A stretch of DNA of 64,000 nt. Origin: an uncultured Pleurocapsa sp. Its GTDB lineage: Bacteria > Chloroflexota > Anaerolineae > Aggregatilineales > Phototrophicaceae. The position numbers and the translations under genes were made by a program. The notes under the pieces were generated by a model, which worked only from the letters and a program-made list of their open reading frames with translations, was not told the origin of the DNA and made no database searches. Shown here one piece after another: positions 2,833-63,031 of the stretch (the first letter of the stretch is position 1; every line of letters begins with the position of its first letter). The DNA is taken from NCBI GenBank assembly GCA_964654755.1, contig CAZZJW010000003.1, positions 19,719 through 83,718 of the forward strand, read 5' to 3'.

Positions 2833-2906
2833 TCGGGGTGCCCGGACTTGAACCGGGGACCTCAGCGTCCCGATCGCTGCGCGCTACCAAGCTGCGCCAC
2901 ACCCCG
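2833..2906 (-). tRNA. tRNA-Pro (anticodon CGG)
   Basis: The reverse complement folds as a cloverleaf. Acceptor CGGGGTG/CACCCCG, D-arm GCGC-AGCTTGGTA-GCGC, anticodon stem CAGCG/CGCTG with loop AT-CGG-GA, T-arm CCCGG-TTCAAGT-CCGGG, discriminator A. 74 nt, CCA not encoded. Confidence 0.95.
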
Positions 2907-4727: not shown

Positions 4728-5681
4728 ATGATCGAAGCGCGTGATTTGAGTAAGCAGTATGATGATTTTCTGGCGGTGGACCGCATCAGCCTGGATATTC
4801 CGGCGGGTTCGGTGCTGGCGCTGCTCGGCCCGAATGGCGCGGGCAAGACCACCACGGTGCGGATGCTCACGTCCATTCTGGCCCCCAGCAGCGGCACCGC
4901 GCGCGTGGCCGGGTACGACGTGGTCCGCAATGCCGAGCAGGTGCGCGCCAGCGTGGGCGTGCTCACCGAGCAGCACGGCCTGTACGAGCGTATGAAGGCG
5001 GTGGAGTATCTCGACTTCTTCGGGCGGGTGTACCGCCTGCCCGCCAATGTGCGCCGCCAGCGCTCGCTGGAGCTGATGGAGCGCTTCGGGCTGTCGTTTG
5101 CGCTCAACCGGCAGCTGGGTGCGTACTCCAAGGGGATGAAACAGAAGCTGGCGCTGGTGCGCGCCATGCTGCACGACCCGCCCGTGCTGCTGCTGGACGA
5201 GCCGACCAGCGCGATGGACCCGCAGAGCGCCAAGCTCGTGCGCGATGCCATCGTCGAACTGCAGCGCGACCGGCGCACCTTCCTGATCACCACGCACAAC
5301 CTGGCCGAAGCGCAGGCGCTGGCCGATCACATCGCCATCATTCGCAAAGGGCGCATCATCGCCAGCGACCGCTTCGAGAACCTCTCTCGCGCGTTCGTGG
5401 GCGAGCCCCTGATGGAGCTGCGCCTGGCCGCGCCGCTCAACGGGCTGCAGACCGAAATTGCCGACATGGTGACCGTGGAGCAGGTGGGCGACACCTGGCT
5501 GCAGTATCGCGTCCCGCGGCCAGAGACCACCAATCCGATGCTGCTGCGCCGGCTGGTGGGCCTGGGGCTGGATGTGATCTCGCTGCGCCCGCTGACGCGC
5601 ACGCTGGAGGAGATCTACCTGCAGGTGATGGAAGAAGACGAGAAGAAGCAGGACGAGGTCGCTCATGAACACATCCGTTAA
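4728..5681 (+). CDS. ABC transporter ATP-binding protein (ABC-2 exporter type)
   Basis: Walker [10 protein letters not shown], signature YSKGMKQKL, Walker B LLLLDEPTS, and a C-terminal accessory domain. Confidence 0.9.
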   Translation: MIEARDLSKQYDDFLAVDRISLDIPAGSVLALLGPNGAGKTTTVRMLTSILAPSSGTARVAGYDVVRNAEQVRASVGVLTEQHGLYERMKAVEYLDFFGRVYRLPANVRRQRSLELMERFGLSFALNRQLGAYSKGMKQKLALVRAMLHDPPVLLLDEPTSAMDPQSAKLVRDAIVELQRDRRTFLITTHNLAEAQALADHIAIIRKGRIIASDRFENLSRAFVGEPLMELRLAAPLNGLQTEIADMVTVEQVGDTWLQYRVPRPETTNPMLLRRLVGLGLDVISLRPLTRTLEEIYLQVMEEDEKKQDEVAHEHIR

Positions 5682-10313: not shown

Positions 10314-10434
10314 TGCGCTGCCGGCCAGTGTGTTGCCGTCACGGGGCGGTTGCGCCGTGTGGCAACATGCGTGTACACTCCATACTGATTTTGGAGTGTT
10401 GCGTGCCATTCCGTGGAATGCGGCTGAGGGTGTT

Positions 10435-10791
10435 GTGGCCAAAGTGCTGATCGTGGATGATGACGTGGTGACGGTTCGGCTGCTATCGACGCTGCTGGAG
10501 ATGGACGGCTTTGATGTGGTCACGGCGGGGCGCGGCCAGGACGTTCTGCCGCGTGTGCACGCCGAGTTGCCGGATGCGATCATGATCGACTTTCATCTGG
10601 CGGATATGGATGGCGTGGAAGTGATCCGCCAGATACGCAAGGATCCGAAGCTGCACACGCTGCCGATCATCATGGCATCGGGTCTGGATGTGCAGATCGA
10701 GGCGATCAGCGCGGGTGCATCCCTTTTTCTGGCCAAACCATTCGACCCCGGCGAGCTGCCGCGCCTGTTCAACAAGCTGATCGCAGGCTGA
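10435..10791 (+). CDS. single-domain response regulator (CheY-like receiver)
   Basis: KVLIVDDD...IMIDFHLADMDG...LPIIMASG...FLAKPF. GTG 10435 follows a GAGGG Shine-Dalgarno-like sequence. No output domain. Confidence 0.8.
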   Translation: MAKVLIVDDDVVTVRLLSTLLEMDGFDVVTAGRGQDVLPRVHAELPDAIMIDFHLADMDGVEVIRQIRKDPKLHTLPIIMASGLDVQIEAISAGASLFLAKPFDPGELPRLFNKLIAG

Positions 10792-10810
10792 CCCGCAGGG
10801 GTTGGGCGAA

Positions 10811-10848
10811 CGGGCGTGCGCACACAGCGCGTGCGCCCGTTTTTTATT
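10811..10848 (+). terminator. rho-independent terminator after the response regulator
   Basis: CGGGCG(t)GCGC-acaca-GCGC(gtg)CGCCCG hairpin followed by TTTTTTATT. Confidence 0.7.
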
Positions 10849-13395: not shown

Positions 13396-13649
13396 TCTGC
13401 CTCTCAATTCCATGCCCAGGGCAATCTCCGGAGTATCCTGCAGCACAGCCGATTATGCCAGAAGCCGGTTGAAAAATGGCTGCGGTTTTCTCGATCTGCG
13501 ATCAGGAGAATGGCCAGCGGCGGCGGCCTGCGCCCGCACAGGATTGGCATGCGGCGGCCCGACTGCGTCATCGCTGAAATTGGTCTCTGTTGCAGCGCGG
13601 CGCTTTTCGCCATAATTGCGCATGAGCAGCTTACGCTGAGGGCAGCATA

Positions 13650-13994
13650 ATGGCAGACGGATACTTCGTACCTCCCCAGGAAGCGCGCCAGATTGAGATG
13701 CGGCCCGGGATACATCGTCGCACGATGGGGATCACCGATGAGGTGATGCTGTGCGAGTTCTTCATTCTGCGCGGCGCGCAGGTGCCGCCGCACAGCCACA
13801 TGAACGATCAGGTGGGCTATGTCGTGCGGGGGACAATGGAGATGACGATCGGTGATCAGGTGCGCGTGCTGAGCGCTGGCGACAGTTACGCCATCCCCGG
13901 CGGCATCGTGCACAGCACGCTTGCGCTGGAGGACACGCTGGCGATCGACGTGTTCTCGCCCCCGCGTGACGACTACCGTACTGAAGCCCGGTGA
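13650..13994 (+). CDS. cupin domain protein
   Basis: Cupin motifs PPHSHMNDQVGYVVRG and GDSYAIPGGIVHS. Confidence 0.75.
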   Translation: MADGYFVPPQEARQIEMRPGIHRRTMGITDEVMLCEFFILRGAQVPPHSHMNDQVGYVVRGTMEMTIGDQVRVLSAGDSYAIPGGIVHSTLALEDTLAIDVFSPPRDDYRTEAR

Positions 13995-14089
13995 TCACCC
14001 CGGCCAGGGGTCAGAATCTCAGTAAATTTCAATACAATAGAAGTGCAGTTTGTTCACCCATCCGTTAAGTGTGTGGATCCGGTGCGACT

Positions 14090-34410: not shown

Positions 34411-35457
34411 TCAGCGTACGCGCACAGCCTCAGCCGTCAGCCGGGCCAGCGCAGCGCGCACAAGGCGCAGGGTATCGTCGTAATCCTGGCGCAGCAGCAG
34501 CGCCGCCGGGCTGTGGATGTAGCGGCAGGGCAGCGAGATCACCGCTGTGGGCGCGCCCGCCCCCGCCATGTGGATGGCGCCGCCATCCGTTCCGCCGCCG
34601 GGATTGGACTTGAACTGATGGCGAATGCCTTCTGCTTCCGCCGTCTCGCGCAGAAAGGCCACCAGCTGCGGCGGCACGATCAGGCTGGAGTCCATCAGCG
34701 AGATCACCGGCCCGCCGCCCATCCGGCAGGTGGGGTTGATCTCGCGTTCATCATCTGCCTGTGCGGTTGGATTGGGCAGATCGTTGGCGGTCGTGCCCTC
34801 CAGCACCAGCGCGACATCGGGCTGCAGCGTGTTCGCCGCCACATGTGCCCCGCGCAGGCCGATCTCCTCCTGCACGGTGAAGGCCGCCAGCACGTCCACC
34901 GGATAGGGCCCGCCCTGCAGCACGTCGATCAGCAGCGCGCAGCCCGCGCGATCGTCAAACGCCTTGCCGCGCAGCATGCGCCCGCCGTCCAGCTCGGTGA
35001 AGGTGCTGTCGAAGGCGATCCGCTCGCCGCGTTTGACCTTGCCCGCTGCCTCGTCCTTGCTGGTCGCGCCGATATCGATGCGCAGGCTGGAGATGCGGAC
35101 GGCGTTCTGGTCCTGATTCTTGTGGATCGGCGTCCATACGATCACGCCCGGCGTGCTGCCGATGCGCACGCGCTTGCCCGGCAGGATGCGGTCATCGATG
35201 CCGCCCACCGCCACAAAGCGGATCAGCCCGTCGCCCTCGAAGCCGGTCACCATCAGGCCGATCTCATCCATATGCGCCGCCAGCATCACGCGAAGCCGGC
35301 GTTCGCCGGTGCCGCGCTGCAGCGCCGTGATGCCGCCCAGCGCGTTGATGCGCACGTCGGTCACGTGCGGGCGGATGGCCCCCAGCACCAGTGCGCGAAC
35401 GGCGTCTTCCTGGCCGGATACGCCGACAGCATCGGAAAGCGTCTGGAGCATCTTCAT
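34411..35457 (-). CDS. M42 family metallo-aminopeptidase, paralogue 2
   Basis: AAHMDEIGLMV, GKAFDDRAG, FTVQEEIGLRGA, LPCRYIHSP. Confidence 0.85.
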   Translation of the reverse strand: MKMLQTLSDAVGVSGQEDAVRALVLGAIRPHVTDVRINALGGITALQRGTGERRLRVMLAAHMDEIGLMVTGFEGDGLIRFVAVGGIDDRILPGKRVRIGSTPGVIVWTPIHKNQDQNAVRISSLRIDIGATSKDEAAGKVKRGERIAFDSTFTELDGGRMLRGKAFDDRAGCALLIDVLQGGPYPVDVLAAFTVQEEIGLRGAHVAANTLQPDVALVLEGTTANDLPNPTAQADDEREINPTCRMGGGPVISLMDSSLIVPPQLVAFLRETAEAEGIRHQFKSNPGGGTDGGAIHMAGAGAPTAVISLPCRYIHSPAALLLRQDYDDTLRLVRAALARLTAEAVRVR

Positions 35458-36533
35458 GCGCTCGCCTCCTCGTAGGCAATCGACTGCATGAACTGGCCGT
35501 CCAACTCGCTGATGAACAGCGCCATCAGCCGGCCAGCCCGCTCAACATCGCGCAGGTCGATGGTCTCGACGGCGGAATGCATGCTGCGCAGCGGGATCTC
35601 GAGCAGCGCAGTTGGAACGCCTTCGCGGGCGATCTGGATGGACCAGGCATCGGTGCCGCTGCTGGCGGGGATCACATCGTCCTGCAGCCGGATCTCATGC
35701 CGCTTCGCGGTCTCGCGCAGGCGGTCGTACAGCTTCGGATGGAAGTTCGCGCCCAGGCCGATGCCCGGGCCGCCGCCCATCTCCAGCGCCTCGTCGGCAG
35801 AGACGCCGGATTGCGGCGCGAAGCACACGTCGAGCGCGATGGCGATGTCGGGCTGCAGGCGAAATGCCGAAGTGCGCGCGCCGAACAGCCCGGTCTCTTC
35901 CTGCACCGTCGCTACGGCGGCCACATCCCATGCGTGGTGCATGCCCTGCAGCGCGTGCAGGCAGGCGCTGACAGCGGCCACAGAGGCGCGGTCGTCCATC
36001 GCCTTGCCGGCCACCTTCGTGCCCAGCAGTTCGATCATCGGCGCATCCACGGTGATCAGATCGCCGATGCGCACCAGCTCGTGCACGCGCTCTGCCGGCA
36101 GGCCGACATCGATCAGCAGCTCGTCGAACGACGGGTAGCGCGCGCGCGCCGCCTGCGTCAGCAGGTGTGGCGGCCTGGCGGCAACGATGCCGGGCAGCAC
36201 TTCGCGGCCATGCACCAGCACGGTCTGCGCCATCAGCAGGCGATTGTCTGTGCCGGCCACGCGGTTGAAGCGGATGAAGCCTTCGCAGATGCCCGTCACC
36301 ATCATGCCGATTTCGTCCATGTGCGCGGCCAGCATGATGGTGCGCGGGGCGGGCAGCGGGCGCGTGGCACGGCGCAGGGCGATCAGGCTGCCCAGGCCGT
36401 CCTCGTGCAGCTCATCTGCACATGGCCCCCATTCCTCGCGCAGGATAGCGCGCAGCGGGCCTTCGTGGCCGCTGGGGGCGTGCGTCTCGGTCAGGCGGCG
36501 CAGATGCGCCTTGATGTCGAAGCTCAACAGCAC
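35454..36533 (-). CDS. M42 family metallo-aminopeptidase, paralogue 3
   Basis: AAHMDEIGMMV, GKAMDDRAS, ATVQEETGLFGA, IPLRSMHSAVE. Its stop overlaps the start of paralogue 2 (ATGA). Confidence 0.85.
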   Translation of the reverse strand: MLLSFDIKAHLRRLTETHAPSGHEGPLRAILREEWGPCADELHEDGLGSLIALRRATRPLPAPRTIMLAAHMDEIGMMVTGICEGFIRFNRVAGTDNRLLMAQTVLVHGREVLPGIVAARPPHLLTQAARARYPSFDELLIDVGLPAERVHELVRIGDLITVDAPMIELLGTKVAGKAMDDRASVAAVSACLHALQGMHHAWDVAAVATVQEETGLFGARTSAFRLQPDIAIALDVCFAPQSGVSADEALEMGGGPGIGLGANFHPKLYDRLRETAKRHEIRLQDDVIPASSGTDAWSIQIAREGVPTALLEIPLRSMHSAVETIDLRDVERAGRLMALFISELDGQFMQSIAYEEASA

Positions 36534-36554
36534 GTCTCCTCATCGATCAGGGGG

Positions 36555-37148
36555 TCAGGGGCCGGGCGGCAGCACCGTTTCGGTCGGCGTGGCCGTCGGT
36601 GGGCAGCCGGTCGGCGGCGGCCCTGGCTGGCTTGGGCACAGATCGAGATTGTCGGCCACGCCGTCTCCGTCGCTGTCCGGCACCGGGATGGGCGTGGCGC
36701 TGGCGAAGACGAACGGCGTGTCGGTCGCGATCGGGATGGGCGATGGCGTCGCGCTGGGTGGCGGCGCGACAGTCGGCGGCAGGGTGAGCGTGGGCGCAGG
36801 CGTCGAGGTTGGGAAGATGAACGGCGTGGCCGTCGGGGGCGCCAGCGTCGGAAAGACCACGGTCGGAAAGACGATCGTCGGGAAGAACTGGCCGGGCGTG
36901 GGCAGCAGGCCGCCTCCGCCACCGGGCAGCGGTGTGATGCTGGGGAAGGCGATGCGCGTGGCGGTCGCCAGCGTGCGGGTGAGCGCGGGCTGGGTGGTTG
37001 CCAGCGGTGTGGGCGTGGCGCGGACGCTGGGGGCCGTCCCCAGCAGCACGAAGCCCGCGCAGTAGAACGGAAGCGTCGCCAGAATGATCAGAAACAGCAC
37101 GACCTGCAGGTTGCGCCGCCGCCGATCTGCGGGTGCTCCGGCTACCAT
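36555..37148 (-). CDS. membrane-anchored Pro/Thr-rich protein with thrombospondin-type-3-like motif
   Basis: One N-terminal TM segment (VVLFLIILATLPFYCAGFVLLG). Long P/T-rich repeats (FPTIVFPTVVFPT). DSDGDGVADNLDLCP near the C-terminus. Its start overlaps the elp3 stop by 7 nt. Confidence 0.6.
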   Translation of the reverse strand: MVAGAPADRRRRNLQVVLFLIILATLPFYCAGFVLLGTAPSVRATPTPLATTQPALTRTLATATRIAFPSITPLPGGGGGLLPTPGQFFPTIVFPTVVFPTLAPPTATPFIFPTSTPAPTLTLPPTVAPPPSATPSPIPIATDTPFVFASATPIPVPDSDGDGVADNLDLCPSQPGPPPTGCPPTATPTETVLPPGP

Positions 37149-39040
37149 TCCTTCTCCTCAGGCTGCTCCACGCGCGCGCTGAACATGTTACCACAAGCCG
37201 CCTGATCCGACGAACCCGCCAGCAGGCGGTGCTGATACAGCGCGCCGTCGCTGAATCCGCGCCGTCGGTAATAGGCGCGCGTGCCCACCGCGCTGATGAC
37301 GCTCAGCCGGGCGCAGCCGGCCTCCGCAGCCAGCAGCGCAGCATGCTCGATCAGGCGCGCACCCAGCCCGCTGTGCTGCGCCCGCCCCGGCTGGCTGCCG
37401 CCGATCTCGACCGCCTGCCCGTACACGTGCACCTCGCGGATGATCGCCGCCCCGGCCAGTTCGGCGCACAGCGGCGCGGCCTCCGGCGCGGGCAGGCGCA
37501 GGCGCAGAAAGGCAGCGATGCTGCGATCCGGCGCGATGAACTGCAGGAAGGCCTCGCGGCCGCCGGCTGCCTCGTACAGCGTGGTCTCCAGGCGTAGTTC
37601 ATCCATGTCCACCAGGCGAAAGCGTACCTCGCGGGCGCGGATGTCGGCGCTCTTCTCGCCGCGCGCTGCCAGCGCCTGCTCGACGAGCTGGCGGAAGTTG
37701 GTCGTGCGGTTGCCGTCGACGATATCGGTGCCGGGGATGTCGCGGATGACGCGCGTCAGGCGGCAGTACTCCGGTGTGCGGCGGAAGCACGCCATCAGCA
37801 GCTCGAGCAGCTCGTCGTGCGTGTAGGGCCGCCAGCGCCCTTCCTGATAAGGACGCATCAGTTCAGCGCTCTCGATCAGCGAACACGGATAGATCTTGAG
37901 CTCGTCGGGCCGGTAGGCGGGATCGGCGAACAGCCGGTCGTAATCGTCGCGGTCGCTGTCCGGCGTCGCGCCGTACAGATTGGGCATCCAGTGCGCGTGG
38001 ATCTTGAAGCCGGCAGCGCGCAGCAGGGCGACCGCCTCGCGGGTGGCCTGCGTGGTGTGTCCGCGCCGATTGAGGCGCAGGATGCGGTCGTCGAGGCTCT
38101 GAAAGCCGATCTGCACCTTGGTGGCGCCCAGCCGGCGCAGGCGCAGCGTCTCTTCCGCCGTCAGGTAGTCTGGCCGCGTTTCGATCACCAGCCCGACGCA
38201 GCGCACGGCGGCGGCCTCGTTCTCGCGGTGCGCGGCCTCCAGCTCCTGCCATGTGGCGAACTCGTCGGTCGGGCGGCGCGCGCCCCCCGCCGCAAGCAGC
38301 GCGGCCAGCCGGGCGGCCTGCTGGCGTTCGCTGGCGTACAGGCGCTGCACGGTCTGGTTGTAGCTCTCGTGCAGCGCCGCGCCCTGCAGCCGCACATTCG
38401 GCGCGGGCTGCGCCGGGTCGAAGGGCGACTGCTCGTGTATCGCCTGCCAGACTTCGGCGGAGCGGTCTTCGCCGCGCCCGAAATCGTGCAGCGCGTCAAA
38501 GGCGCGGCGCACGAACCAGATCTGATAGCTCTCCGGGTAGAACGACCACGTCCCGCCCAGGATGAGCAGCTCGATCTTGTCGGTGGGGTGGCCGGTGTTG
38601 AAGAAGGCGCGCAGGCGCGTCATGGTCTGGAGATAGGGGTCGAAGGCATTCTGCGCCGCCCGCTGCGCGCCGGGCTCATCGGAGAGGTAGCTCTTGGGCA
38701 TGCGCACGTCGTTGGGGCAGAAGATGCACTCGCCGGGGCAGGGATACGGCCGGGTGAGGATGGTGACCGGCGTCACGCCGCTGCTGGTGCGCACTGGTTT
38801 CATGCGCAGGCGCTCGATGACCGCCGGATCGAAGGGAGGCAGCGCTTCGCCGGCGAAGGCGCGGTAGGCGCGCAGCAGATCATCGCGGCTGAAGATGCGC
38901 CCGCCAGCCGTCCGCCCGGTCTGGCGCACCAGCCGGTCGAGGCGCTGGCCGGTGAGCGTGGCATCAGCCGCCACCGCCTGCAGGATGGTCAGCAGTGCTG
39001 CGCGGTGCTGTTCGAGGTCGAGGGCAGGGCGAAAGGTCAT
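37142..39040 (-). CDS. elp3: Elp3-family radical SAM/GNAT enzyme (tRNA wobble-uridine carboxymethylation type)
   Basis: Radical-SAM Cys triad CPGECIFCP. Elp3-like blocks ELLILGGTWSFYPESYQIWF, VGLVIETRPDYL, VQIGFQSLDDRILRLNRRGHT, DELKIYPCSLIESAEL, TRVIRDIPGTDIV. C-terminal GNAT (IIREVHVYGQAV, QHSGLGARLIEHAA, SVISAVGTRAYYRRRGF). Confidence 0.85.
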   Translation of the reverse strand: MTFRPALDLEQHRAALLTILQAVAADATLTGQRLDRLVRQTGRTAGGRIFSRDDLLRAYRAFAGEALPPFDPAVIERLRMKPVRTSSGVTPVTILTRPYPCPGECIFCPNDVRMPKSYLSDEPGAQRAAQNAFDPYLQTMTRLRAFFNTGHPTDKIELLILGGTWSFYPESYQIWFVRRAFDALHDFGRGEDRSAEVWQAIHEQSPFDPAQPAPNVRLQGAALHESYNQTVQRLYASERQQAARLAALLAAGGARRPTDEFATWQELEAAHRENEAAAVRCVGLVIETRPDYLTAEETLRLRRLGATKVQIGFQSLDDRILRLNRRGHTTQATREAVALLRAAGFKIHAHWMPNLYGATPDSDRDDYDRLFADPAYRPDELKIYPCSLIESAELMRPYQEGRWRPYTHDELLELLMACFRRTPEYCRLTRVIRDIPGTDIVDGNRTTNFRQLVEQALAARGEKSADIRAREVRFRLVDMDELRLETTLYEAAGGREAFLQFIAPDRSIAAFLRLRLPAPEAAPLCAELAGAAIIREVHVYGQAVEIGGSQPGRAQHSGLGARLIEHAALLAAEAGCARLSVISAVGTRAYYRRRGFSDGALYQHRLLAGSSDQAACGNMFSARVEQPEEKEW

Positions 39041-43970: not shown

Positions 43971-44042
43971 GCCCCCATAGCTCAGTGGATAGAGCGGCGG
44001 ACTCCTAAGCCGTGCGCCCGGGTTCGATTCCCGGTGGGGGTA
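43971..44042 (+). tRNA. tRNA-Arg (anticodon CCT)
   Basis: Acceptor GCCCCCA/TGGGGGT (G1.U72 wobble), D-arm GCTC-AGTGGATA-GAGC, anticodon loop CT-CCT-AA, T-arm CCGGG-TTCGATT-CCCGG, discriminator A. 4-nt variable loop. A31/G39 are unpaired. Confidence 0.85.
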
Positions 44043-54294: not shown

Positions 54295-54492
54295 TTACAG
54301 CTCGCTGCAATCCCACATGAAGCCGCAGCGTTCGCAGCGCACCTTGCACGCGCGGCGGACGGTGGGCGCGCCGCAGCCGGGGCAGGCCGTGGAGAGCGTG
54401 TAGTTGGGCAGGGGAGCCAGCGGCGGGCGCGCGGGTGCCTGTTCGGGCGCGACGGGCGGCGCAGCAGGCTGTGGCGGGGCAGAGCGTTTCAT
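54295..54492 (-). CDS. small Pro-rich zinc-ribbon protein (65 aa)
   Basis: CPGCG...CERCG pair of CxxC motifs. ATG 54492 preferred over 54534. Confidence 0.45.
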   Translation of the reverse strand: MKRSAPPQPAAPPVAPEQAPARPPLAPLPNYTLSTACPGCGAPTVRRACKVRCERCGFMWDCSEL

Positions 54493-55079: not shown

Positions 55080-55105
55080 GCCGCCTCAGACCGAGGCGGT
55101 TTTTG
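55080..55105 (+). terminator. rho-independent terminator after cspA
   Basis: CCGCCTC-agacc-GAGGCGG followed by TTTTT. Confidence 0.8.
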
Positions 55106-55131
55106 ATTCCTGCGCCAGCCAGCCCGATCCC

Positions 55132-55168
55132 GGAAAACAAAGCGGCCCACTCATTGAGCGGGCCGCTT
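55132..55168 (-). terminator. rho-independent terminator after tRNA-Cys
   Basis: Minus strand: AGCGGCCC-(11-nt loop)-GGGCCGCT followed by TTGTTTTCC. Confidence 0.65.
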
Positions 55169-55175
55169 CCGGCTG

Positions 55176-55246
55176 AGGCGACGACCAGATTCGAACTGGT
55201 GATCAGGCTTTTGCAGAGCCTTGCCTTACCTCTTGGCCACGTCGCC
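55176..55246 (-). tRNA. tRNA-Cys (anticodon GCA)
   Basis: Reverse complement: acceptor GGCGACG/CGTCGCC, short D-stem GCC/GGC, anticodon stem AGGCT/AGCCT with loop CT-GCA-AA, T-arm ACCAG-TTCGAAT-CTGGT, discriminator U. Confidence 0.95.
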
Positions 55247-55257
55247 GGATTGAAGGC

Positions 55258-55286
55258 ATTATACGTGAGCGCCTGTGCCCTGACAA
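55258..55286 (-). promoter_or_regulatory. sigma70-type promoter of tRNA-Cys (TTGTCA-17 nt-TATAAT)
   Basis: The minus strand reads TTGTCA gggcacaggcgctcacg TATAAT. The -10 element ends 11 nt before the tRNA 5' end. Confidence 0.65.
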
Positions 55287-55327
55287 GACCTTGCGCCTGT
55301 GCGCGAAAGCGGCCACAATACCGAATT

Positions 55328-56173
55328 ATGAACGATGACTTCCGGCCACCGGCCGACCCCGAAGATCCTTCCGCCCAGCCGGATCCCGTGCCGGCGGATG
55401 CGCCTGCAGAGCCCGCGCAGTCCGATGCGCCCGGCCTGGAGGCGTTTGCCGCGGAGACGCAGGCGTTGTTCGAGTCGGACTTTGACCCGGAAGCAGCGCT
55501 GGACGCCATCATCAGCGGGCAGGCGGCGGCGCAGCTTGCCGCACTGGAGACCGCTGAGCCTGAGGAAGAAGCGCCGGTTGTGCGCCGGGCGCTGCCGCCG
55601 GTGTACGAGCCGGTGGCATATACGCCGGCGCTGGCCATGCCGGGCGGCGAGTCGCTGCGGCGCGGGTCGCCAGGGGCGCTGGCTGCCGGGCTGGTGCTGA
55701 TCGCGCTGGGCGGCGGGCTGACGGCTGCGCTGTCGCTGGGGCAGCCGCTGGACCCGCTGCTCCTGACGGTGGCGGGCCTGGGCGGGCTGGCGCTGGTGCT
55801 GCTGGCGCACTGGCTGGGCAGCGGGCGCTGGGCGCGCGGCGTGCTGTTCGTGGCGCTGGCGCTGCTGCTGCCGGGCGCGCTGGTGGCGGCCACGATCCTC
55901 GTACCCGGTTTTGCGCTCACCTCGACGTGGCCGCTGCTGCTGAGCGCGCTGGGCGTCGCTTGTCTGCTGACGGCGGCGCTGGGCCGCCCGCGCAGCGCCT
56001 CGATCGCTCTGCTGGGCGCGGCGCTGATCGTCGCCGGAGCGGTGGGCACGCTGTTCACCTTCGGCTTTCTGCCCGCCGCATGGCTGGAGCCGGGCCGCAC
56101 CCTCGCCCCCGCGCTGCTGATCGTGTTCGCCATCCTCTGGGCGCTGCCGCTGGTCATCCGCCGCCGGACGTAA
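55328..56173 (+). CDS. hypothetical membrane protein with acidic N-terminal tail
   Basis: Acidic, Pro-rich first ~90 aa, then about 6 TM segments. The first ~225 nt of track ORF 55103..56173 cover the tRNA-Cys locus and are not coding. Confidence 0.55.
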   Translation: MNDDFRPPADPEDPSAQPDPVPADAPAEPAQSDAPGLEAFAAETQALFESDFDPEAALDAIISGQAAAQLAALETAEPEEEAPVVRRALPPVYEPVAYTPALAMPGGESLRRGSPGALAAGLVLIALGGGLTAALSLGQPLDPLLLTVAGLGGLALVLLAHWLGSGRWARGVLFVALALLLPGALVAATILVPGFALTSTWPLLLSALGVACLLTAALGRPRSASIALLGAALIVAGAVGTLFTFGFLPAAWLEPGRTLAPALLIVFAILWALPLVIRRRT

Positions 56174-56175
56174 TC

Positions 56176-57249
56176 GTGCATCTCGCGATTGACGCCAGCC
56201 GGACCACCAATGCCCACCCCACCGGGACCGAACGGTACGCGCTCGAAATGATCCGCGCGCTCATTCCACTCATCAATGGGCGGCTGACGCTGTACTTTCG
56301 CGATGTGCCGCCGCGTGGGCTGTTCCCCGACAGTGCTGAATGCAGGGTGCTGCACATGCCGCGCCTGTGGACGCACACGCGGCTGGCGCTGCAGGTGGCT
56401 CTCGACCGCCCGGACGTGCTGTGGGTGCCCGCGCATACCCTGCCATTCGCCTTTCCGGGCCGCGCCGCCGTGACCGTGCATGACCTGGGCTATCTGCACT
56501 TCCCGGATGCGCATCCGCCGCGCCAGCGCGCCTACCTCGACTGGACCACGCGCAGCAGCGCCCGCCGCGCGGCGATCGTGCTGGCGGACAGCAGGGCGAC
56601 GGCGACAGACCTGACTCGCGCCTATCGCATCCCCCCGGAGCGCATCCGCGTGGTGTACCCGGGCGTGAACGTGCCGCCGGTGCAGGATGTCCCGGCTGTC
56701 GCGCGGAAGCTGGGCCTGCCGGAGCGCTACTTCCTGTTTCTGGGCACGCTGCAGCCGCGCAAGAATATCGCCCGGTTGGTGCAGGCCTATCAGCGCTGGC
56801 AGGCGGAGCATCCCGGCGATCCGGCGGCGCTGGTGCTGGCGGGCCGGCGCGGCTGGCTGTATGACCCGGCCTGGACGGCGAATGTGCCCGGCGTGATAGA
56901 GCCTGGCTACGTTGCGGATGAGGACCGGGGCGCGCTGTACGCGGGGGCGCTTGCGCTGGTCTTCCCGTCGCTGTACGAGGGATTCGGCTTTCCTGTGCTG
57001 GAAGCGATGGGCTGCGAGACGCCCGTCATCGCCAGCGCGACGTCCAGCCTGCCGGAGCTGGCGGGCGATGCGGCGCTGCTGGTCAACCCGCTGGATGTCG
57101 AAGAGATCGCCTCGGCCATGGGCCGCCTGAGCGACCGGCCGGGGGAGCACGACCGGTTGGTACGCGCTGGCCTGCGTCAGGTGGAGAAGTTCACCTGGGC
57201 TGCGGCTGCCGAGGCTGCATGGGCGGCGCTGCAGGAGGCGGCGAGTTGA
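56176..57249 (+). CDS. glycosyltransferase family 4 (GT-B)
   Basis: LVFPSLYEGFGFPVLEAMGCETPVIAS motif. GTG 56176 lies 3 nt after the upstream stop. Confidence 0.85.
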   Translation: MHLAIDASRTTNAHPTGTERYALEMIRALIPLINGRLTLYFRDVPPRGLFPDSAECRVLHMPRLWTHTRLALQVALDRPDVLWVPAHTLPFAFPGRAAVTVHDLGYLHFPDAHPPRQRAYLDWTTRSSARRAAIVLADSRATATDLTRAYRIPPERIRVVYPGVNVPPVQDVPAVARKLGLPERYFLFLGTLQPRKNIARLVQAYQRWQAEHPGDPAALVLAGRRGWLYDPAWTANVPGVIEPGYVADEDRGALYAGALALVFPSLYEGFGFPVLEAMGCETPVIASATSSLPELAGDAALLVNPLDVEEIASAMGRLSDRPGEHDRLVRAGLRQVEKFTWAAAAEAAWAALQEAAS

Positions 57250-59090
57250 GTGTACAACGCATCCTGATCGTGCAGCTTGGAGATCTGGGCGATATGCTGC
57301 TCTCCACGCCGGCGCTGGCGGCGCTTCGCGAGGCGCTGCCGGGTGCGCGGCTGGACGTGCTGGCGGCTCCACACAACGAAGCGCTGCTGCGCGGCAGCGG
57401 GCTGGCTGATCGGTTGATCCCGCTGTCGCGGCGCGCGAGCCTGCGGCGCCCGGGCGGGCTGCTGGCGCTGGTGCGTGCGCTGCGCGCCGAACGATACGAC
57501 GTCGTGCTGTATCTGCATCATTTCACCACGCGGGCAGGCGCGCTGAAGTACGCGGCCATCGCCTGGGCGACCGGCGCTCCGGTCCGGCTGGGGCTGGAGA
57601 ATGGACACGGCTTCTTTCTGACCGAGCGGCTGCCGGACGAGGGCTTCGGCGCGCGGCACCAGGCGGAGTACTGGCTGGCGCTGACTGCCCGGCTTGGTGC
57701 AGACCCCCGCCCACGACCGATGCAGATCGCCATCGCGGCTGAGGACCGCGCCTGGGCGCAGCAGCAGCTGGCGGCGCTGCCGTCTGGCCCGCGCGTGGTG
57801 CTGCACCCCGGCAGCGGGGGCGACAGCCTGGCGCGGCGCTGGCCGGCGCAGGCGTTCGCCGATGCGGCAGCACTGCTGACGGCGCAGGGCGCGCAGCTGG
57901 TGTTGGTGGGCGGCCCGAATGATGACCTCGACGCGGTGCGCGCCGTCGCACAGGTTCCGCTGCTCGATCTGGGCGGGCAGACCACGCTTGGCCGGCTGGC
58001 GGCGGTGCTGGCGCAGGCCGACGCTTTCCTGGGCGCGGACAGCGGCGTGATGCACCTGGCGTGCGCGGTGCAAACGCCGACCGCCGCGATCTTCGGGCCG
58101 AGCAATGCGCGCGCCTGGGGGCCGTGGACGCCGCAGTCCCCGGCGCTGATCGTGCGGCGCGCGCCTGCATGCTCGCCGTGCAGCTATATTCGCCATACGA
58201 CCGGCCAGCGCGAGGGCTGCCCGGCGCGCACGTGCATGCATCTGGTCACGCCGGCGCGGGCTGCCGCGGCTGTGCAGTCGCTGCTGGCGGGTGCGGTGCT
58301 GCCGGGCGTTCCGGAAAGCACGCCACCTGGTGAAGGCGGGGTGGATGGCGTCGCGCACGTGACCGTGCTCGGGATGCCGGTGAGCGCGATCACCTACGCG
58401 CGGCTGCTGACGCTGATCGGGCGCTGGATACAGGAAGCACCGCATGGTCTGCGCCACATCTGCACGATCAACCCGGAGATGGTGATGATCGCCCGGCGCG
58501 ATGTCAACTTCGCCAACATCCTGCAGCGCGCGGCGGTGACCGTCCCGGATGGCGTTGGGCTGCTGTGGGCGGCTCGGCGGCTGGGGAAGCCGCTGCCGGA
58601 GCGTGTGACTGGCTCGGACGGCGTGCCGCTGATCGCGGAGCGGGCTGCCCGCCATGGCTGGCGCCTGTTCCTGCTGGGCGCAGCCCCCGGCGTGGCGGAT
58701 CGCGCCGCCGAGGTGCTGTGTGCGCGTTATCCCGGGCTTCGCATCGCCGGGGTGTACAGCGGCAGCCCGAAGCCGGAAGAGGAGGCCGAAATCGCCGAGC
58801 GCGTCAATCAGAGCGGCGCGGATGTGCTGTTCGTCGCCTTCGGCGCGCCGGAGCAGGACAAGTGGATTGCGCGCAACGCGCCGCGCCTGAATGTGACGAT
58901 GGCGATGGGTGTGGGCGGCACGTTCGACTTCATCGCCGGGGTGGTGCCGCGCGCGCCGCAGTGGATGCGCCGTGCAGGGCTGGAATGGCTGTACCGGCTG
59001 ATCCGCCAGCCCTGGCGGCTGCGCAGGATGCTGCGCCTGCCGCGCTTCGCGGCGCTGGTGATGCTGCACGGCGCAAAGGGAGCGGGCTGA
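57246..59090 (+). CDS. fusion glycosyltransferase: GT9 (heptosyltransferase-like) + GT26 (WecB/TagA/CpsF)
   Basis: N-terminal half: RILIVQLGDLGDMLLSTPALAALRE and ...GADSGVMHLACAV (GT9). C-terminal half: CTINPEMVM, VPDGVGLLWAAR, LLGAAPGVA, VAFGAPEQDKW, GVGGTFDF (GT26). Single uninterrupted frame. Start is TTG 57246 (TTGA overlap) or ATG 57219. Confidence 0.8.
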   Translation: MSVQRILIVQLGDLGDMLLSTPALAALREALPGARLDVLAAPHNEALLRGSGLADRLIPLSRRASLRRPGGLLALVRALRAERYDVVLYLHHFTTRAGALKYAAIAWATGAPVRLGLENGHGFFLTERLPDEGFGARHQAEYWLALTARLGADPRPRPMQIAIAAEDRAWAQQQLAALPSGPRVVLHPGSGGDSLARRWPAQAFADAAALLTAQGAQLVLVGGPNDDLDAVRAVAQVPLLDLGGQTTLGRLAAVLAQADAFLGADSGVMHLACAVQTPTAAIFGPSNARAWGPWTPQSPALIVRRAPACSPCSYIRHTTGQREGCPARTCMHLVTPARAAAAVQSLLAGAVLPGVPESTPPGEGGVDGVAHVTVLGMPVSAITYARLLTLIGRWIQEAPHGLRHICTINPEMVMIARRDVNFANILQRAAVTVPDGVGLLWAARRLGKPLPERVTGSDGVPLIAERAARHGWRLFLLGAAPGVADRAAEVLCARYPGLRIAGVYSGSPKPEEEAEIAERVNQSGADVLFVAFGAPEQDKWIARNAPRLNVTMAMGVGGTFDFIAGVVPRAPQWMRRAGLEWLYRLIRQPWRLRRMLRLPRFAALVMLHGAKGAG

Positions 59091-60073
59091 TGACGATGCT
59101 GGCCGGGCTGGTTGAGCACTTTCGCCGCCTGCGGGTGGTGGTGGTGGGCGATGTCATCCTTGACGAGTACCTGATCGGGCGCGCGGTGCGCCTCAGCCGT
59201 GAAGCGCCCGTGCCCGTGCTGGAGTTTGAGCAGCGCCAGCTCATCCCCGGCGGCGCGGCCAACCCGGCGGTCAACACCGCGGCGCTGGGCGCGCAGACCA
59301 CGCAGGTCGGGCTGATCGGCGCGGATGCCGAGGGCGAGGCGCTGGAGGAGGCGCTGCGCGGGCGCGGCGTCACGCCCCGGCTGATCGTCGATGGCGGGCG
59401 CGGCACGACGGTCAAGACGCGGGTGCTGGCGCATATGGGCCTGCGTTTTCCGCAGCAGGTGGCGCGGCTGGACCGGCTGTCTCGCGCGCCGCTGGACGAC
59501 GCGAGCAGCGCGGCGGTGGGGGCGGCGCTGGAGCAGGCAGGGCGTGGCGCGGATGTCGTGCTGTATTCCGACTATCAGCTCGGGCTGATCACGCCGGCGC
59601 TGGCTGCGCTGCCGTTCACCGGGCTGCGTGTGGCAGACTCGCAGGGCAGCTTCGAGAAGTACAGCGGCTTTGACGCGGTGAAGTGCAACGCAGATGAAGC
59701 CTCGGCCTGGCTGGGAGTGCGGCTGGAGGGCGATGCTGCGTTCGCCGGCGCGGCGCAGGCGCTGTTCGCGCAACTGAAGCTGCGGCGGTGCATGGTGATC
59801 ACGCGCGGGGCGGATGGCGCGACGGTCGCCGATGCCGGGGGCGCGGCGCACTGCCCGGCCCCGGCCACCAGCGAAGTGTACGATACCGTGGGCGCGGGCG
59901 ATACCGCCGTGGCGGTGCTGGCGCTGGCGCTGGCCGCGGGCGCGGTGCCCGCCGATGCCGTGCGTATGGCGAACGCGGCCAGCGGACTGGTGGTGCGCCG
60001 GGTGGGCAACTATGCACCCAGCGTGGATGAGCTCAGCGCGGCGCTGGCCGCTGCAGAATCCGATAGGCGTTGA
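59090..60073 (+). CDS. PfkB-family sugar kinase resembling HldE/RfaE domain I (heptose-7-phosphate kinase)
   Basis: RVVVVGDVILDEYLIGRAVRLSREAPVPVLE (RfaE-like N-terminus) and DTVGAGDT (PfkB signature). No adenylyltransferase domain. The ATG shares 1 nt with the upstream TGA. Confidence 0.75.
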   Translation: MTMLAGLVEHFRRLRVVVVGDVILDEYLIGRAVRLSREAPVPVLEFEQRQLIPGGAANPAVNTAALGAQTTQVGLIGADAEGEALEEALRGRGVTPRLIVDGGRGTTVKTRVLAHMGLRFPQQVARLDRLSRAPLDDASSAAVGAALEQAGRGADVVLYSDYQLGLITPALAALPFTGLRVADSQGSFEKYSGFDAVKCNADEASAWLGVRLEGDAAFAGAAQALFAQLKLRRCMVITRGADGATVADAGGAAHCPAPATSEVYDTVGAGDTAVAVLALALAAGAVPADAVRMANAASGLVVRRVGNYAPSVDELSAALAAAESDRR

Positions 60074-60749
60074 CCGCGCCCGAAAAGCCGTCTGCGCGGT
60101 AGGCGCGCAGCATGTTCAGCCCGGTCGCCGCGCACAGCGCCTCGATCTCCGCATCGTCGGCATGGTGGCAGTAGCGCAGCGCATGCGTCCCTGCGCGCCA
60201 GTCCAGCAGCGCGTCTCCCGGCTCAGGCGTCATGTCTGCGGGGAAGGGGACCATGCGCTGGCGGAAGCGCTCGTACTCGCCGAAGCGCCAGCAGGCGAAG
60301 CACAGCAGGCCTCCGGGCGCGACGCAGGCCGCCGCCCGCTCCATGAGCGCGAGGCGCCGCTGCAGGCCGGGGATGTGATGCAGCAGGCCGAACAGCGCGA
60401 CCAGGCCGAAGGTGCGGCTGGGCAGCGGGGCGCTGAGCACATCGGCCTGCTGCAGCGTGAGCGACAGGCCGGGCAGGCTGGCGCAGCGTTCGCGCGCATG
60501 GGCCAGCAGGCCAGCATCCGAGTCGATGCCGTGGAAAGTCAGCTCGCCACCCAGCGCGGGATGCAGAAAGCGCGCCAGTCGGCCGTTGCCGCAGCCGATA
60601 TCGAGCACGCTCAGCGGCGGGTGCAGCAGGGGCAGCAGGCCGGACCAGCCCGGCCACGGCTGACCGCGCGTGGCATCGAAGGCCTCGCCGGCGCTGCGGT
60701 AGAATGCCTGATTGAGCGCGTTCAGACGCGCCGCTGTTTCATCGTCCAT
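60033..60749 (-). CDS. class I SAM-dependent methyltransferase, Trm9/ALKBH8-MT-like
   Basis: SAM motif I VLDIGCGNG. Trm9-like blocks FDATRGQPWP (compare HFSxTRxxPWP), LLHHI...RR, CFACW, LRYCHHADDAEIEALC (compare RYYHxFxxGEL). The 3' end overlaps the convergent kinase gene by 41 nt. Confidence 0.7.
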   Translation of the reverse strand: MDDETAARLNALNQAFYRSAGEAFDATRGQPWPGWSGLLPLLHPPLSVLDIGCGNGRLARFLHPALGGELTFHGIDSDAGLLAHARERCASLPGLSLTLQQADVLSAPLPSRTFGLVALFGLLHHIPGLQRRLALMERAAACVAPGGLLCFACWRFGEYERFRQRMVPFPADMTPEPGDALLDWRAGTHALRYCHHADDAEIEALCAATGLNMLRAYRADGFSGAVNAYRILQRPAPR

Positions 60750-60762
60750 CCGGGAGCCGGGC

Positions 60763-61587
60763 ATGATGCAGTTCGCCATCAACTATTCACCGCAGGCCGC
60801 CGCGCTGCTGCAGCGTGGAGAGATTGTAATCGACCGCTTCAAGTGCCCCAACTGGGACTGGCTGATCGCAGAGGCGCGCCAGTTCCTGCAGGTGTACGTG
60901 CACTTCGATCTGATCGCCGGCAACGGCTCGGTGCGGCAGTGCGACTGGGCGGCGGTGGAACGCCAGCTTGCGCAGACCGGGACGCATTACGTCAATTTGC
61001 ACCCGGACGTGCGCCTGCGCGATTTCGGCTTCAGCGCACAGCCGGAGCGCCGTGCGGAGATCGAGCGCGTGGCCGAGCAGGTGCTGGCAGACCTCGCCTG
61101 GGTGTCTGCGCGGGTGGGCGCGGAGCGCGTGCTGCTGGAGAATCTGCCGTTTCGCGAGAACGCGCGCAACCCTGCCGCCAGTATGGTGCGCGCGCTGAGC
61201 GACCCGGCAGAGCTGAGTCGCATCATCAGCGCGGCGCGGGTGGGCCTGCTGCTCGACCTGTCGCACGCGGCCCTCAGCGCGCCAGCGTTTGGGCTGAGTG
61301 AGGACGCCTACATCGATGCGCTGCCGCTGGCACGGGTGGGCGAGGTGCATGTCACCGGCATCGGCCTGGTGGAGGGCGAACGGCGCGATCACCTGCCGAT
61401 GACTGCGCCGGACTGGACGCGCTTCGCGGGCTTCATCCAGCGCCTGCGCGCCGGGGCGATGGGGCGCCCAGCGATCGTCGCCTTCGAGTACGGCGGTGTG
61501 GGCGAGAAGTTCGCCTGGCGCAGCGACTCAGAAGTCATCCGCCGGGATGGGCAAAAGTTGTATTACGGAGTTCACAGCGCGCTATAA
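60763..61587 (+). CDS. DUF692/MbnB-like TIM-barrel protein (multinuclear non-haem iron oxidase, MNIO family)
   Basis: 274 aa. The ordered candidate metal ligands match the MbnB pattern recalled from memory: H47 (YVHFD), H80 (NLHPD), E126 (LLENLP), D165/H168 (LLDLSHA), H196 (EVHVTG), D209/H210 (RRDHLPM), E242 (AFEYGG). The N-terminus MQFAINYS...IDRFK resembles MQIGFNFT...IDYVE of MbnB. Confidence 0.6.
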   Translation: MMQFAINYSPQAAALLQRGEIVIDRFKCPNWDWLIAEARQFLQVYVHFDLIAGNGSVRQCDWAAVERQLAQTGTHYVNLHPDVRLRDFGFSAQPERRAEIERVAEQVLADLAWVSARVGAERVLLENLPFRENARNPAASMVRALSDPAELSRIISAARVGLLLDLSHAALSAPAFGLSEDAYIDALPLARVGEVHVTGIGLVEGERRDHLPMTAPDWTRFAGFIQRLRAGAMGRPAIVAFEYGGVGEKFAWRSDSEVIRRDGQKLYYGVHSAL

Positions 61588-61663: not shown

Positions 61664-63031
61664 ATGCGAAGCCTGTGGCAGGACCGGGGTGGGCGCATCT
61701 TCTTGCTGGTGTGGTTCGGGCAGCTCATCTCACTGGTGGGCTCGCAGCTCACGTCGTTCGGCCTGGGCGTGTGGGTGTATCAGCAGACGGGCTCAGTCAC
61801 CGACTTTGCGCTGATCCTGGTGGCGGCGGTGCTGCCGACGATCGTGCTTTCTCCTTTCGCCGGGGCGGTGGCGGACCGATACGACCGCCGCCGGGTGATG
61901 ATCGTGGCCGACAGCGCGGCGGCGCTCTCCACGCTGAGCGTGGCGCTGCTGTACAGCACGGGCAGCCTGCAGATCTGGCATATCTATCTGGCAGCGCTGG
62001 TGAACTCGAGCGCAACCGCCTTTCAGATGCCGGCTTACAGCGCGTCGATTTCGCTGCTGGTGCCCAGCGAGCAGTACGGGCGTGCCGCCGGCCTGGGCAG
62101 CCTGTCCGAGTCGCTTTCGCTGATCTTCGGCCCGCTGCTGGCGGGGGCGCTGATCGGGGTGATCGGCCTGAGCGGAATCATCGCGCTGGACGTGCTGACG
62201 TTTGTCTTTGCGGTGACGGTGGTGCTGCTGGTGCGCTTCCCCGCCGTGCCGCGCGCGGAGGGCGCTTCGGGAGAGGCCCCACCCTCGTTCTGGAGTGAGG
62301 TGCTGGCGGGCTGGAAGTACCTGACCAGCAACCGGCCGCTGCTGCTGCTCATCCTCTTCTTCGCCGCCAGCAATCTGGCCGGCGCGCTGGTCTCTGTGCT
62401 GCTGACGCCGCTGGTGCTTTCATATGCCAGCCCGATTGAGCTCGGCATCGTCAATGGCGCGTTCGGGCTGGGCATGCTGATCGGCAGCGTGCTGATGGTG
62501 ACGTGGGGCGGGCCGACCCGCCGCGTTCGGGCGATGCTGCTGCTGTCGCTGGTCAACGGAGTCGTCTTCATGCTGATCGGCGGGCTGCCCAGTGTGCCGG
62601 TGGCCGCGCTGGCGATCACGCTGTCGATGATCGGCGTGCCGATCCTCAACGGCGCGTTCAGCGTGCTGATCCGCATGAAAGTGCCGCCGGAACTGCAGGG
62701 GCGGGTGTTCTCGGCGATCATGATGCTGGCGATGAGCGCGGTGCCAGTCGCCAGCCTGCTGGCAGGGCCGCTGGCGGACCGCGTGTTTGAGCCGCTGATG
62801 GCGGCAGGCGGAGGCCTGGCAGGCAGCCTCGGCGGGCTGATCGGCGTGGGCGATGGGCGCGGGATCGGCCTGATGCTGATCCTGAACGGCCTGTTCCTGA
62901 TCGCGGTGACGGGCATCGCTGCGCTGACGCCGACGCTGCGGCAGGTGGAGCACCTGCTGCCGGATTACGAGATGCCCGACGCGCCGCCTGAGGCTGCCGA
63001 GCCAGCGATGGAGCCCGGGGCAGCCGCCTGA
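61664..63031 (+). CDS. MFS transporter (EntS/MFS_3-like exporter)
   Basis: 12-TM MFS pattern. FGQLISLVGSQLTSFGLGVW, FAGAVADRYDRRRVMI. ATG 61664. Confidence 0.85.
   Translation: MRSLWQDRGGRIFLLVWFGQLISLVGSQLTSFGLGVWVYQQTGSVTDFALILVAAVLPTIVLSPFAGAVADRYDRRRVMIVADSAAALSTLSVALLYSTGSLQIWHIYLAALVNSSATAFQMPAYSASISLLVPSEQYGRAAGLGSLSESLSLIFGPLLAGALIGVIGLSGIIALDVLTFVFAVTVVLLVRFPAVPRAEGASGEAPPSFWSEVLAGWKYLTSNRPLLLLILFFAASNLAGALVSVLLTPLVLSYASPIELGIVNGAFGLGMLIGSVLMVTWGGPTRRVRAMLLLSLVNGVVFMLIGGLPSVPVAALAITLSMIGVPILNGAFSVLIRMKVPPELQGRVFSAIMMLAMSAVPVASLLAGPLADRVFEPLMAAGGGLAGSLGGLIGVGDGRGIGLMLILNGLFLIAVTGIAALTPTLRQVEHLLPDYEMPDAPPEAAEPAMEPGAAA

Follow-up and report, generated by a model that had tools for sequence, protein, structure and literature searches.

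Multinuclear iron-dependent oxidases (MNIOs, DUF692) are now regarded as tailoring enzymes of peptides that are made on ribosomes and modified after translation (RiPPs), and genome mining takes each PF05114 match as the marker of a peptide cluster, with recent surveys counting about 13,500-14,000 'MNIO BGCs' (biosynthetic gene clusters). The genes for their partner proteins normally lie immediately downstream of the enzyme gene. Characterised MNIOs bind the peptide through such a partner (DUF2063, MbnC, TglI or DUF1772), and the precursor is co-encoded (PMC12452194, PMC11252979, PMC13174530). MovX has no separate partner protein and carries a fused winged-helix domain resembling a RiPP recognition element (RRE) (PMC12452194, PMC11252979). 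The gene described here lies in a 64,000-nucleotide stretch (hereafter the window) of contig CAZZJW010000003.1 (assembly GCA_964654755.1, positions 19,719 to 83,718 of the forward strand), from an uncultured Pleurocapsa sp. placed by GTDB in the Phototrophicaceae (Chloroflexota, Anaerolineae, Aggregatilineales). Its product is an MNIO family member, and the clade to which it belongs is without partner, fused peptide-recognition domain or precursor gene, unlike all characterised MNIOs. The gene does not belong to a RiPP cluster.

The open reading frame (ORF) at 60763-61587 (+) runs for 274 stop-free codons to its stop codon, in agreement with the 274-residue protein proposed by an earlier, sequence-only reading of the window. 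Its longest mechanical version begins upstream at a TTG (60712), while M-x-F-A-I-N-Y-S forms the N-terminus of all homologues in the alignment and a GGGAG at 60752-60756 precedes the start by 6-9 nt. On near-identical public contigs gene callers choose the second Met (60766), which yields 273 residues. The ORF is real, with a product of 273-274 residues.

Membership of the MNIO family follows from family-level PF05114 matches, a profile search of the PDB and the Foldseek ranking. For the single window sequence Pfam is nearly tied, PF05114 (MbnB_TglH_ChrH) scoring 27.6 bits (cut-off 25) over residues 115-200 only and PF01261 27.5 bits over residues 45-258, under its cut-off of 31.1. Among 41 relatives PF05114 is matched by every one (best E 9.5e-15) and PF01261 by five. 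The family profile, run against all PDB sequences, found MNIOs only (3BWW 1.1e-6, TglH 2.9e-6 and MbnB 3.7e-4), with no other chain, sugar isomerases and endonuclease IV included, at E <= 1. TglH, MbnB and 3BWW likewise occupy Foldseek ranks 1-7 (E 6e-13 to 3e-9, TM-scores 0.62-0.67), TglH being the top match (6e-13, 0.67), followed by D-tagatose 3-epimerases (2e-8, 0.57-0.60) and, at 1e-6 to 3e-5, by IolI, xylose isomerases, UVDE and endonuclease IV (2.9e-5, 0.50 for the last). The DUF692 assignment made by the sequence-only reading is upheld by these searches, and the sugar-isomerase or AP-endonuclease-2 assignment that it had set against itself beforehand was not seen. The relationship is remote, at 12-18% identity to solved members, and NCBIfam equivalog models score far under their cut-offs (ApyH 42.1/400, BufB 26.5/310 and HvfB 19.2/360 bits), the best of them, ApyH (E 5.5e-11), being a weak partial match.

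Nine putative ligand positions (H47, H80, E126, D165, H168, H196, D209, H210 and E242) are invariant in the 41 relatives, which are 39-56% identical, and in a 20-sequence sister subgroup, so that the ordered His/His/Glu/Asp-His/His/Asp-His/Glu pattern first noticed in the window protein extends well beyond it. An AlphaFold2 model made from the 41-relative alignment (pLDDT 95.8, pTM 0.93) is a plain (β/α)8 barrel, with the ligands at or just past the C-terminal ends of successive predicted strands (residues 44-47, 77-80, 123-126, 161-165, 192-197, the hairpin 206-211, and 238-241). These strand ends form the catalytic face, where TIM-barrel active sites sit, and the topology of the model suggests that the putative ligands cluster in space, as the sequence-only reading had expected of a predicted structure. 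By analogy with relatives of solved structure, site 1 would consist of H47, H80 and E126, site 2 of E126, D165, H196 and E242, and site 3 of H168, D209 and H210; the ions bound would number two or three, iron being the most likely metal. MbnB/MbnC, TglH/TglI, HvfB/HvfC, BufB/BufC and ApyH/ApyI share with the clade the PF05114 family, the (β/α)8 barrel and the nine ligand positions in order, but besides the low identity and TM-scores given above, the clade differs from these partnered enzymes in two details of the site. Three residues past the β6 Asp it has an invariant His in place of Asn (D-V-N-N in 3BWW, D-L-H-N in TglH, D-I-S-N in MbnB), and in the alignment it has an adjacent D-H in place of D-x-H (D-W-H in TglH). 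A subgroup of about 300 residues (P0162, P0165, P0192 and others) carries an insertion of about 25 residues between the β7 His and the D-H hairpin while retaining every invariant residue; lying beside the putative third metal site, the insertion might be a lid or specificity element.

The ligand pattern, which the sequence-only reading had offered as a sign of an MNIO, is present as claimed but is not diagnostic by itself, because the same order fits the tri-zinc site of endonuclease IV equally. In an hhalign comparison with E. coli Nfo (NC_000913) covering residues 69-227 (probability 35%, E 4e-4), the clade residues H80, E126, D165-x-x-H168, H196 and D209-H210 pair with the metal ligands H109, E145, D179-x-x-H182, H216 and D229-x-H231 of Nfo; the comparison aligns seven of the nine positions, H47 and E242 corresponding by order only. 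It is therefore worth asking whether the protein is an endonuclease IV- or UvdE-like trinuclear phosphodiesterase acting on damaged DNA or RNA. The shared D-x-x-H, as opposed to the D-x-x-N of solved MNIOs, would suit such an enzyme, as would the endonuclease IV and UVDE fold matches at 2-3e-5 and the genomic surroundings, in which two unrelated lineages have nth no more than 3 kb away (10 Anaerolineae loci, and two Tepidisphaeraceae loci where it is on the same strand) and other loci have RuvX, era, a RecG-like gene and LigT nearby. We nevertheless regard this as very unlikely: the MNIOs match far better than endonuclease IV both in sequence and in fold (TM-score 0.67 against 0.50), there is no sign in the clade of DNA-binding loops or other DNA-binding features, and nucleic-acid genes are abundant in housekeeping operons anyway. 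The Nfo alignment points to homology of the putative metal site at the superfamily level, not to membership.

Sugar barrels of the PF01261 type (D-tagatose 3-epimerase and IolE/IolI/IolO-type enzymes) belong to the same superfamily, give the second-best folds and co-occur with the gene in some operons. As far as is known, PF01261 sugar epimerases use a single E-D-H-E metal site. A non-redox isomerase, epimerase or dehydratase of sugars or sugar phosphates, xylose-isomerase-like and using divalent Mn, Co or Zn, with the extra His residues a lineage peculiarity, would account for the PF01261 score along most of the barrel, the sugar and cyclitol operons described below and the occurrence of the gene in probable anaerobes. 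It has to contend with the sub-cut-off and sporadic PF01261 matches, the lack of any sugar isomerase in the PDB profile search, and five invariant ligand positions (H47, H80, H168, D209 and H210) beyond E-D-H-E; a conventional PF01261 barrel, moreover, is already encoded beside or near the gene in two loci (L092 and L171). We consider such an activity quite unlikely.

The clade is large. A word-indexed search returned 814 homologues, those listed being 258-366 residues long and either unannotated or named 'DUF692/UPF0276 family', and an exhaustive hidden Markov model search of 1.84 billion representatives, clustered at 50% identity, gave 268 clusters at E <= 1e-30, a number that rises to 755 at <= 1e-10 and to 2489 at <= 1e-3. 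The best 150 of the 268 representatives at E <= 1e-30 span 168-318 residues, the shortest looking like fragments. In species-representative genomes a relative is encoded in 399 stretches, most of them Chloroflexota (Anaerolineae, Aggregatilineales and 'Chloroflexia' metagenome-assembled genomes, MAGs) and the remainder Trueperaceae, four Halobacillus species, Tepidisphaeraceae, an Armatimonadales MAG and a Bacillota MAG; plasmid records yielded no homologue. The Halobacillus andaensis protein (WP_188377651.1) is already named 'DUF692 family multinuclear iron-containing protein' at NCBI, and with such labelling in the databases the family assignment is not new. Tandem paralogues occur in an Aggregatilineales MAG (L041, 9022-9870 and about 10001-10813), the sole duplication among the 121 loci whose surroundings were compared.

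For this comparison ORFs were clustered, all those up to 7 kb from the gene being taken in 81 genomic loci and those up to 6 kb away in 40 further, mostly metagenomic loci (>=5 kb) chosen for the 300-residue subgroup. No MNIO accessory gene emerged from them. The most frequent neighbour, MltG, is a housekeeping protein present in only 33 of the 81 loci, and small ORFs of 18-100 residues outside large ORFs formed no family in more than three of the 81. Only 44 of the 121 loci have a co-directional ORF within 250 nt downstream. The products of these ORFs are mixed (GSDH, MFS, GNAT, PLD-like, sulfurylase, Uma2, DUF1349, hydrolases, NUDIX, DUF218, PPTase and MgtC), and none matches DUF2063, MbnC, TglI or DUF1772; on the upstream side MltG, Era, alcohol dehydrogenase (ADH), GNAT, phosphatases and others occur, with no adjacent precursor. 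Pfam annotation of the window genes and about ten other contexts found no MNIO partner family, and no extra domain was found in the best 150 of the 268 representatives at E <= 1e-30. Long ORFs in three loci (804, 461 and 437 residues), which might have hinted at a fused domain, proved to be Arg-rich read-through ahead of the MxFAxNYS start.

The window agrees with the clade. Pfam annotation of about 45 window genes and of 10 kb past the window end, the stretches at about 26.5-28.4, 33.4-35.5, 42-45 and 50.4-52.5 kb being poorly gene-called, revealed no DUF2063, MbnC, TglI or DUF1772 protein, and near the gene no credible small ORF exists, every one overlapping a real gene in another frame. The sequence-only reading had reported neither an adjacent partner nor a small Cys-containing ORF; no partner-precursor pair that it had overlooked came to light at the locus, and the orphan status holds for the whole clade (121 loci). 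The small Cys-rich product encoded 6.2 kb upstream at 54298-54492 (-), where a PF04188 mannosyltransferase-like gene lies on one side and a cold-shock gene on the other, was rejected as a precursor: it is a standard CPxCG...CxRCG zinc ribbon (here CPGCG...CERCG, with a faint HVO_2523 match), conserved at the same spot only in L002 and L004.

These absences bear most directly on the possibility that the protein is a conventional MNIO-type maturase acting on a peptide or protein that is encoded elsewhere, as a helper may be too, and that it recognises directly, with no leader-binding partner. The characterised members of the family all modify peptides, and the best NCBIfam match is to one of them, ApyH (42 bits). 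Antoine et al. note that for many small groups of MNIOs precursors are not easily found and that some may modify bona fide proteins, and MovX provides a partner-free precedent (PMC12452194). The clade appears to share this partner independence with MovX, but MovX has its additional RRE-like domain and a RiPP cluster with a precursor, whereas the clade proteins are bare barrels with no fused RRE or winged helix-turn-helix domain and no precursor nearby. A maturase would also have to be reconciled with the lack of a linked precursor in 121 loci from five phyla, with scores far under cut-off against every MNIO equivalog model, and with the apparent spread of a single gene into unrelated contexts. 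On balance a maturase of this kind seems unlikely.

The genomic contexts follow lineage, and no neighbour is general among the 121 loci. Several lie in housekeeping surroundings. In 33 loci alaS, a Baseplate_J-like gene, ruvX, mltG and the MNIO-like gene are co-directional, with the mltG stop separated from the MNIO-like start by <=3 nt in nine loci and by <=93 nt in 23. A possible analogue is the mltG-trmR-trhP (tRNA ho5U) region of B. subtilis. The Baseplate_J-like protein (500-550 residues, between alaS and ruvX; L090 2793-4442 and 27 other loci of this arrangement) places a phage domain oddly in what seems a conserved Anaerolineae housekeeping operon. In twelve loci the opposite strand carries nth, an unknown secreted protein and Sir2, after which come the MNIO-like gene and sugar ABC permeases; in the window the same permeases occur with an MFS (major facilitator superfamily) gene inserted. 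Tepidisphaeraceae show lpxI, moaD, moaE, the MNIO-like gene, a membrane protein and nth, and Trueperaceae the MNIO-like gene followed by genes for ATP sulfurylase and APS kinase. In a Trueperaceae chromosome (L089) about 935 apparently non-coding nt (5066-6000), with no Rfam match and no conserved ORF, precede the gene, sat and cysC following it. Riboswitches or leader RNAs were not found upstream of homologues. A possible role in low-molecular-weight thiol metabolism, considered for its GNAT and PIG-L neighbours, was dropped, the two-GNAT neighbour having no mycothiol-synthase match.

Other contexts concern sugars, and no functional theme but carbohydrate or cyclitol catabolism recurs in tight operons. 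Halobacillus has mannitol EIIA, mannitol-1-phosphate dehydrogenase, a YfcE-type phosphoesterase and then the MNIO-like gene. The 300-residue subgroup shows a number of arrangements: era overlapping the MNIO-like gene; cupin, GNAT and the MNIO-like gene; MFS, three Gfo/Idh/MocA proteins and an IolE-like TIM barrel with the MNIO-like gene after a 2-nt gap; a sugar-isomerase-like barrel, GH42 β-galactosidase, short-chain dehydrogenase/reductase (SDR), IolM-like Zn-ADH and the MNIO-like gene (L171, annotated in full); and URO-D upstream with an aldo-keto reductase, a thiamine pyrophosphate enzyme and an SDR downstream. The ADH pairing is tight in three loci (gaps of 12-66 nt), the ADH cluster occurring in five, and a GSDH gene lies downstream of the MNIO-like gene in 13 loci. 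The sugar ABC permeases that adjoin the gene in the lineage of the window fit the sugar theme as well.

Given that neither partner, precursor nor recognition domain accompanies a lone gene found in several phyla, we suggest that the protein is a self-sufficient enzyme acting on a genetically unlinked, generally available substrate. The gene appears to have spread singly into unrelated contexts, and its presence alone in five phyla fits an autonomous function on a widespread substrate; standing always among housekeeping or sugar-use genes, it probably has no locally encoded peptide substrate. As to the choice left by the sequence-only reading, between a substrate encoded elsewhere and a non-peptide substrate, the evidence leans towards the latter. 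Our preferred reading, to which we would give slightly less than an even chance, is that the clade members are cytoplasmic single-domain TIM-barrel metalloenzymes, forming a distinct deep MNIO branch, that act on a small molecule at a multinuclear metal site. The substrate would most likely be a common soluble compound, the recurrent operon partners pointing to a sugar, cyclitol or polyol derivative. Speculatively, MNIO-type chemistry would have a substrate heteroatom bound to one Fe(III) while O2 activated at a neighbouring Fe(II) takes the hydrogen of a C-H bond. There is established precedent in myo-inositol oxygenase (MIOX), which oxidises a polyol at a mixed-valent di-iron site; mixed-valent di-iron oxygenases, MIOX among them, need no external reductant for the four-electron oxidation of a small polyol or other hydroxylated compound bound to Fe(III). 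A like logic has been proposed for MNIOs, but MIOX is a mechanistic analogue only, with an HD-domain fold and no sequence relationship to the clade. The bolder proposition, that the clade is the first MNIO-type multinuclear-iron family to act on a non-peptide small molecule, alone and in core or carbohydrate metabolism, with MIOX-like reductant-independent oxidation as one candidate reaction, is in our view possible but doubtful.

Several observations weigh against a small-molecule oxidase. RNA, DNA and cell-envelope housekeeping contexts (alaS-ruvX-mltG, era, nth) are about as many as the sugar-related ones, the clearest sugar operons belong to the sister subgroup of about 300 residues and not to the subgroup of about 270 residues that includes the window protein, and no sugar gene of the window is demonstrably co-transcribed with the MNIO-like gene. 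The identity of the metal, the need for O2 and the nature of the substrate are putative throughout. Judged by record names only, many carriers are MAGs of Anaerolineae sampled from the subsurface or from anaerobic cultures, and such probable anaerobic sources fit uneasily with an obligatory dependence on O2. Every MNIO characterised to date, moreover, modifies a peptide or protein (PMC13174530, PMC12452194).

In the literature searched we found no account of this clade, of Chloroflexota MNIOs, or of an MNIO with a non-peptide substrate. The novelty lies in traits found together: the clade is large and mostly from Anaerolineae, its proteins are bare barrels, their ligand set is complete and has His for Asn, partner and precursor are systematically lacking, and the genes stand in core or sugar operons. 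Several hundred sequence clusters with a full metal site and without partner, precursor or recognition domain imply that the use of PF05114 as a peptide-cluster marker is not universally valid. Were the substrate indeed a small molecule, the chemistry of multinuclear iron barrels would reach beyond peptides, and the clade would offer a one-protein system in which to study the cofactor, including the debated third metal site, where His stands for the usual Asn. As H. andaensis is a cultured aerobic carrier, the question is directly testable.

The immediate neighbours of the gene in the window (Table 1) had been described as a methyltransferase, an MFS exporter and glycan genes. They are present, but they give no evidence on function, because they are lineage-specific (methyltransferase and glycan genes in five of the 121 loci each, the MFS gene in three). 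The window and four Anaerolineae MAGs share a GT9-WecG fusion, a PfkB kinase, a divergent class I methyltransferase and the MNIO-like gene. Within GCATGATG, at 60752-60768, the methyltransferase ATG (60764-60762, -) touches or overlaps the MNIO-like ATG (60763 or 60766). There is effectively no intergenic region between the two genes, and either both promoters lie within the opposite gene or the methyltransferase has a more internal start (Met12, 60749); a promoter and terminator scan around the MNIO-like gene gave no sites and was uninformative. From this arrangement it could be supposed that in the window subclade methyltransferase, MNIO-like enzyme and MFS exporter form a module making and exporting a small methylated metabolite: the divergent methyltransferase is found in all five subclade loci with start codons touching, and an EntS/Mef-like MFS gene begins only 76 nt past the MNIO-like stop here and also follows in L003 and L007. 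Shared ancestry explains the arrangement, because the five loci are close relatives with synteny extending over GT9-WecG, PfkB, methyltransferase and MNIO-like gene; 116 of the 121 loci lack the methyltransferase, which matches generic class I families only, and 118 lack the MFS gene. Such a module therefore seems most unlikely, and as functional partners of the MNIO-like gene the methyltransferase (window and L001-L004) and the MFS protein (window, L003 and L007) were both discarded as lineage-restricted.

Table 1. Coordinates in the window of the MNIO-like gene, its putative ligand codons and the two adjacent genes.
Feature	Position	Strand	Basis or remark
MNIO-like (DUF692/PF05114 clade) gene; predicted single (β/α)8 barrel, 273 aa (274 aa with the Met at 60763)	60766..61587	+	
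H47 (60901-60903) and H80 (61000-61002) codons; putative metal site 1 ligands	60901..61002	+	Analogy with endonuclease IV H69/H109
E126 codon (E-N motif), putative bridging carboxylate	61138..61140	+	Invariant; aligned with VEN of 3BWW and IEN (E145) of Nfo
D165-L-S-H168 motif; His in the clade, Asn in solved MNIOs	61255..61266	+	Alignment
H196 (61348-61350) and adjacent D209-H210 (61387-61392) on β hairpin; putative ligands	61348..61392	+	Invariant; D-W-H in TglH, D-R-H in Nfo
E242-Y-G-G motif; E242 is the last putative ligand	61486..61497	+	Invariant; aligned with L-E-Y-Q-G of TglH
Divergent class I S-adenosylmethionine (SAM) methyltransferase	60033..60764	-	Pfam; window and L001-L004 only, among 121 loci
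MFS_3/EntS-Mef-like transporter, 76 nt downstream	61664..63031	+	Homologue follows the MNIO-like gene elsewhere only in L003 and L007

Elsewhere in the window Pfam annotation shows ordinary housekeeping functions, among them Lon, SerRS, LysRS, GreA and RNase Y, along with histidine kinases, glycosyltransferases and a radical-SAM protein. The last, of 632 residues with a Radical_SAM_C domain (37142-39040), is succeeded by a 197-residue protein lacking a Pfam match and then by an M42 aminopeptidase (35454-36533); this stretch, 35454-39040 (-), is 22 kb from the MNIO-like gene and has no evident link to it. The GT9-WecG fusion of the window (57219-59090, +) is a 623-residue protein in which a GT9 heptosyltransferase-family domain (residues 82-320) is joined to a WecG/TagA/CpsF domain (438-604), and it is held at the same position in the Anaerolineae loci L002-L004. 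Three tRNA genes lie at 2833-2906 (-), 43971-44042 (+) and 55176-55246 (-). A long mechanical ORF (55103-56173) encloses the third; the real gene of this ORF, of 281 residues in called contigs, probably begins about 230 nt further in.

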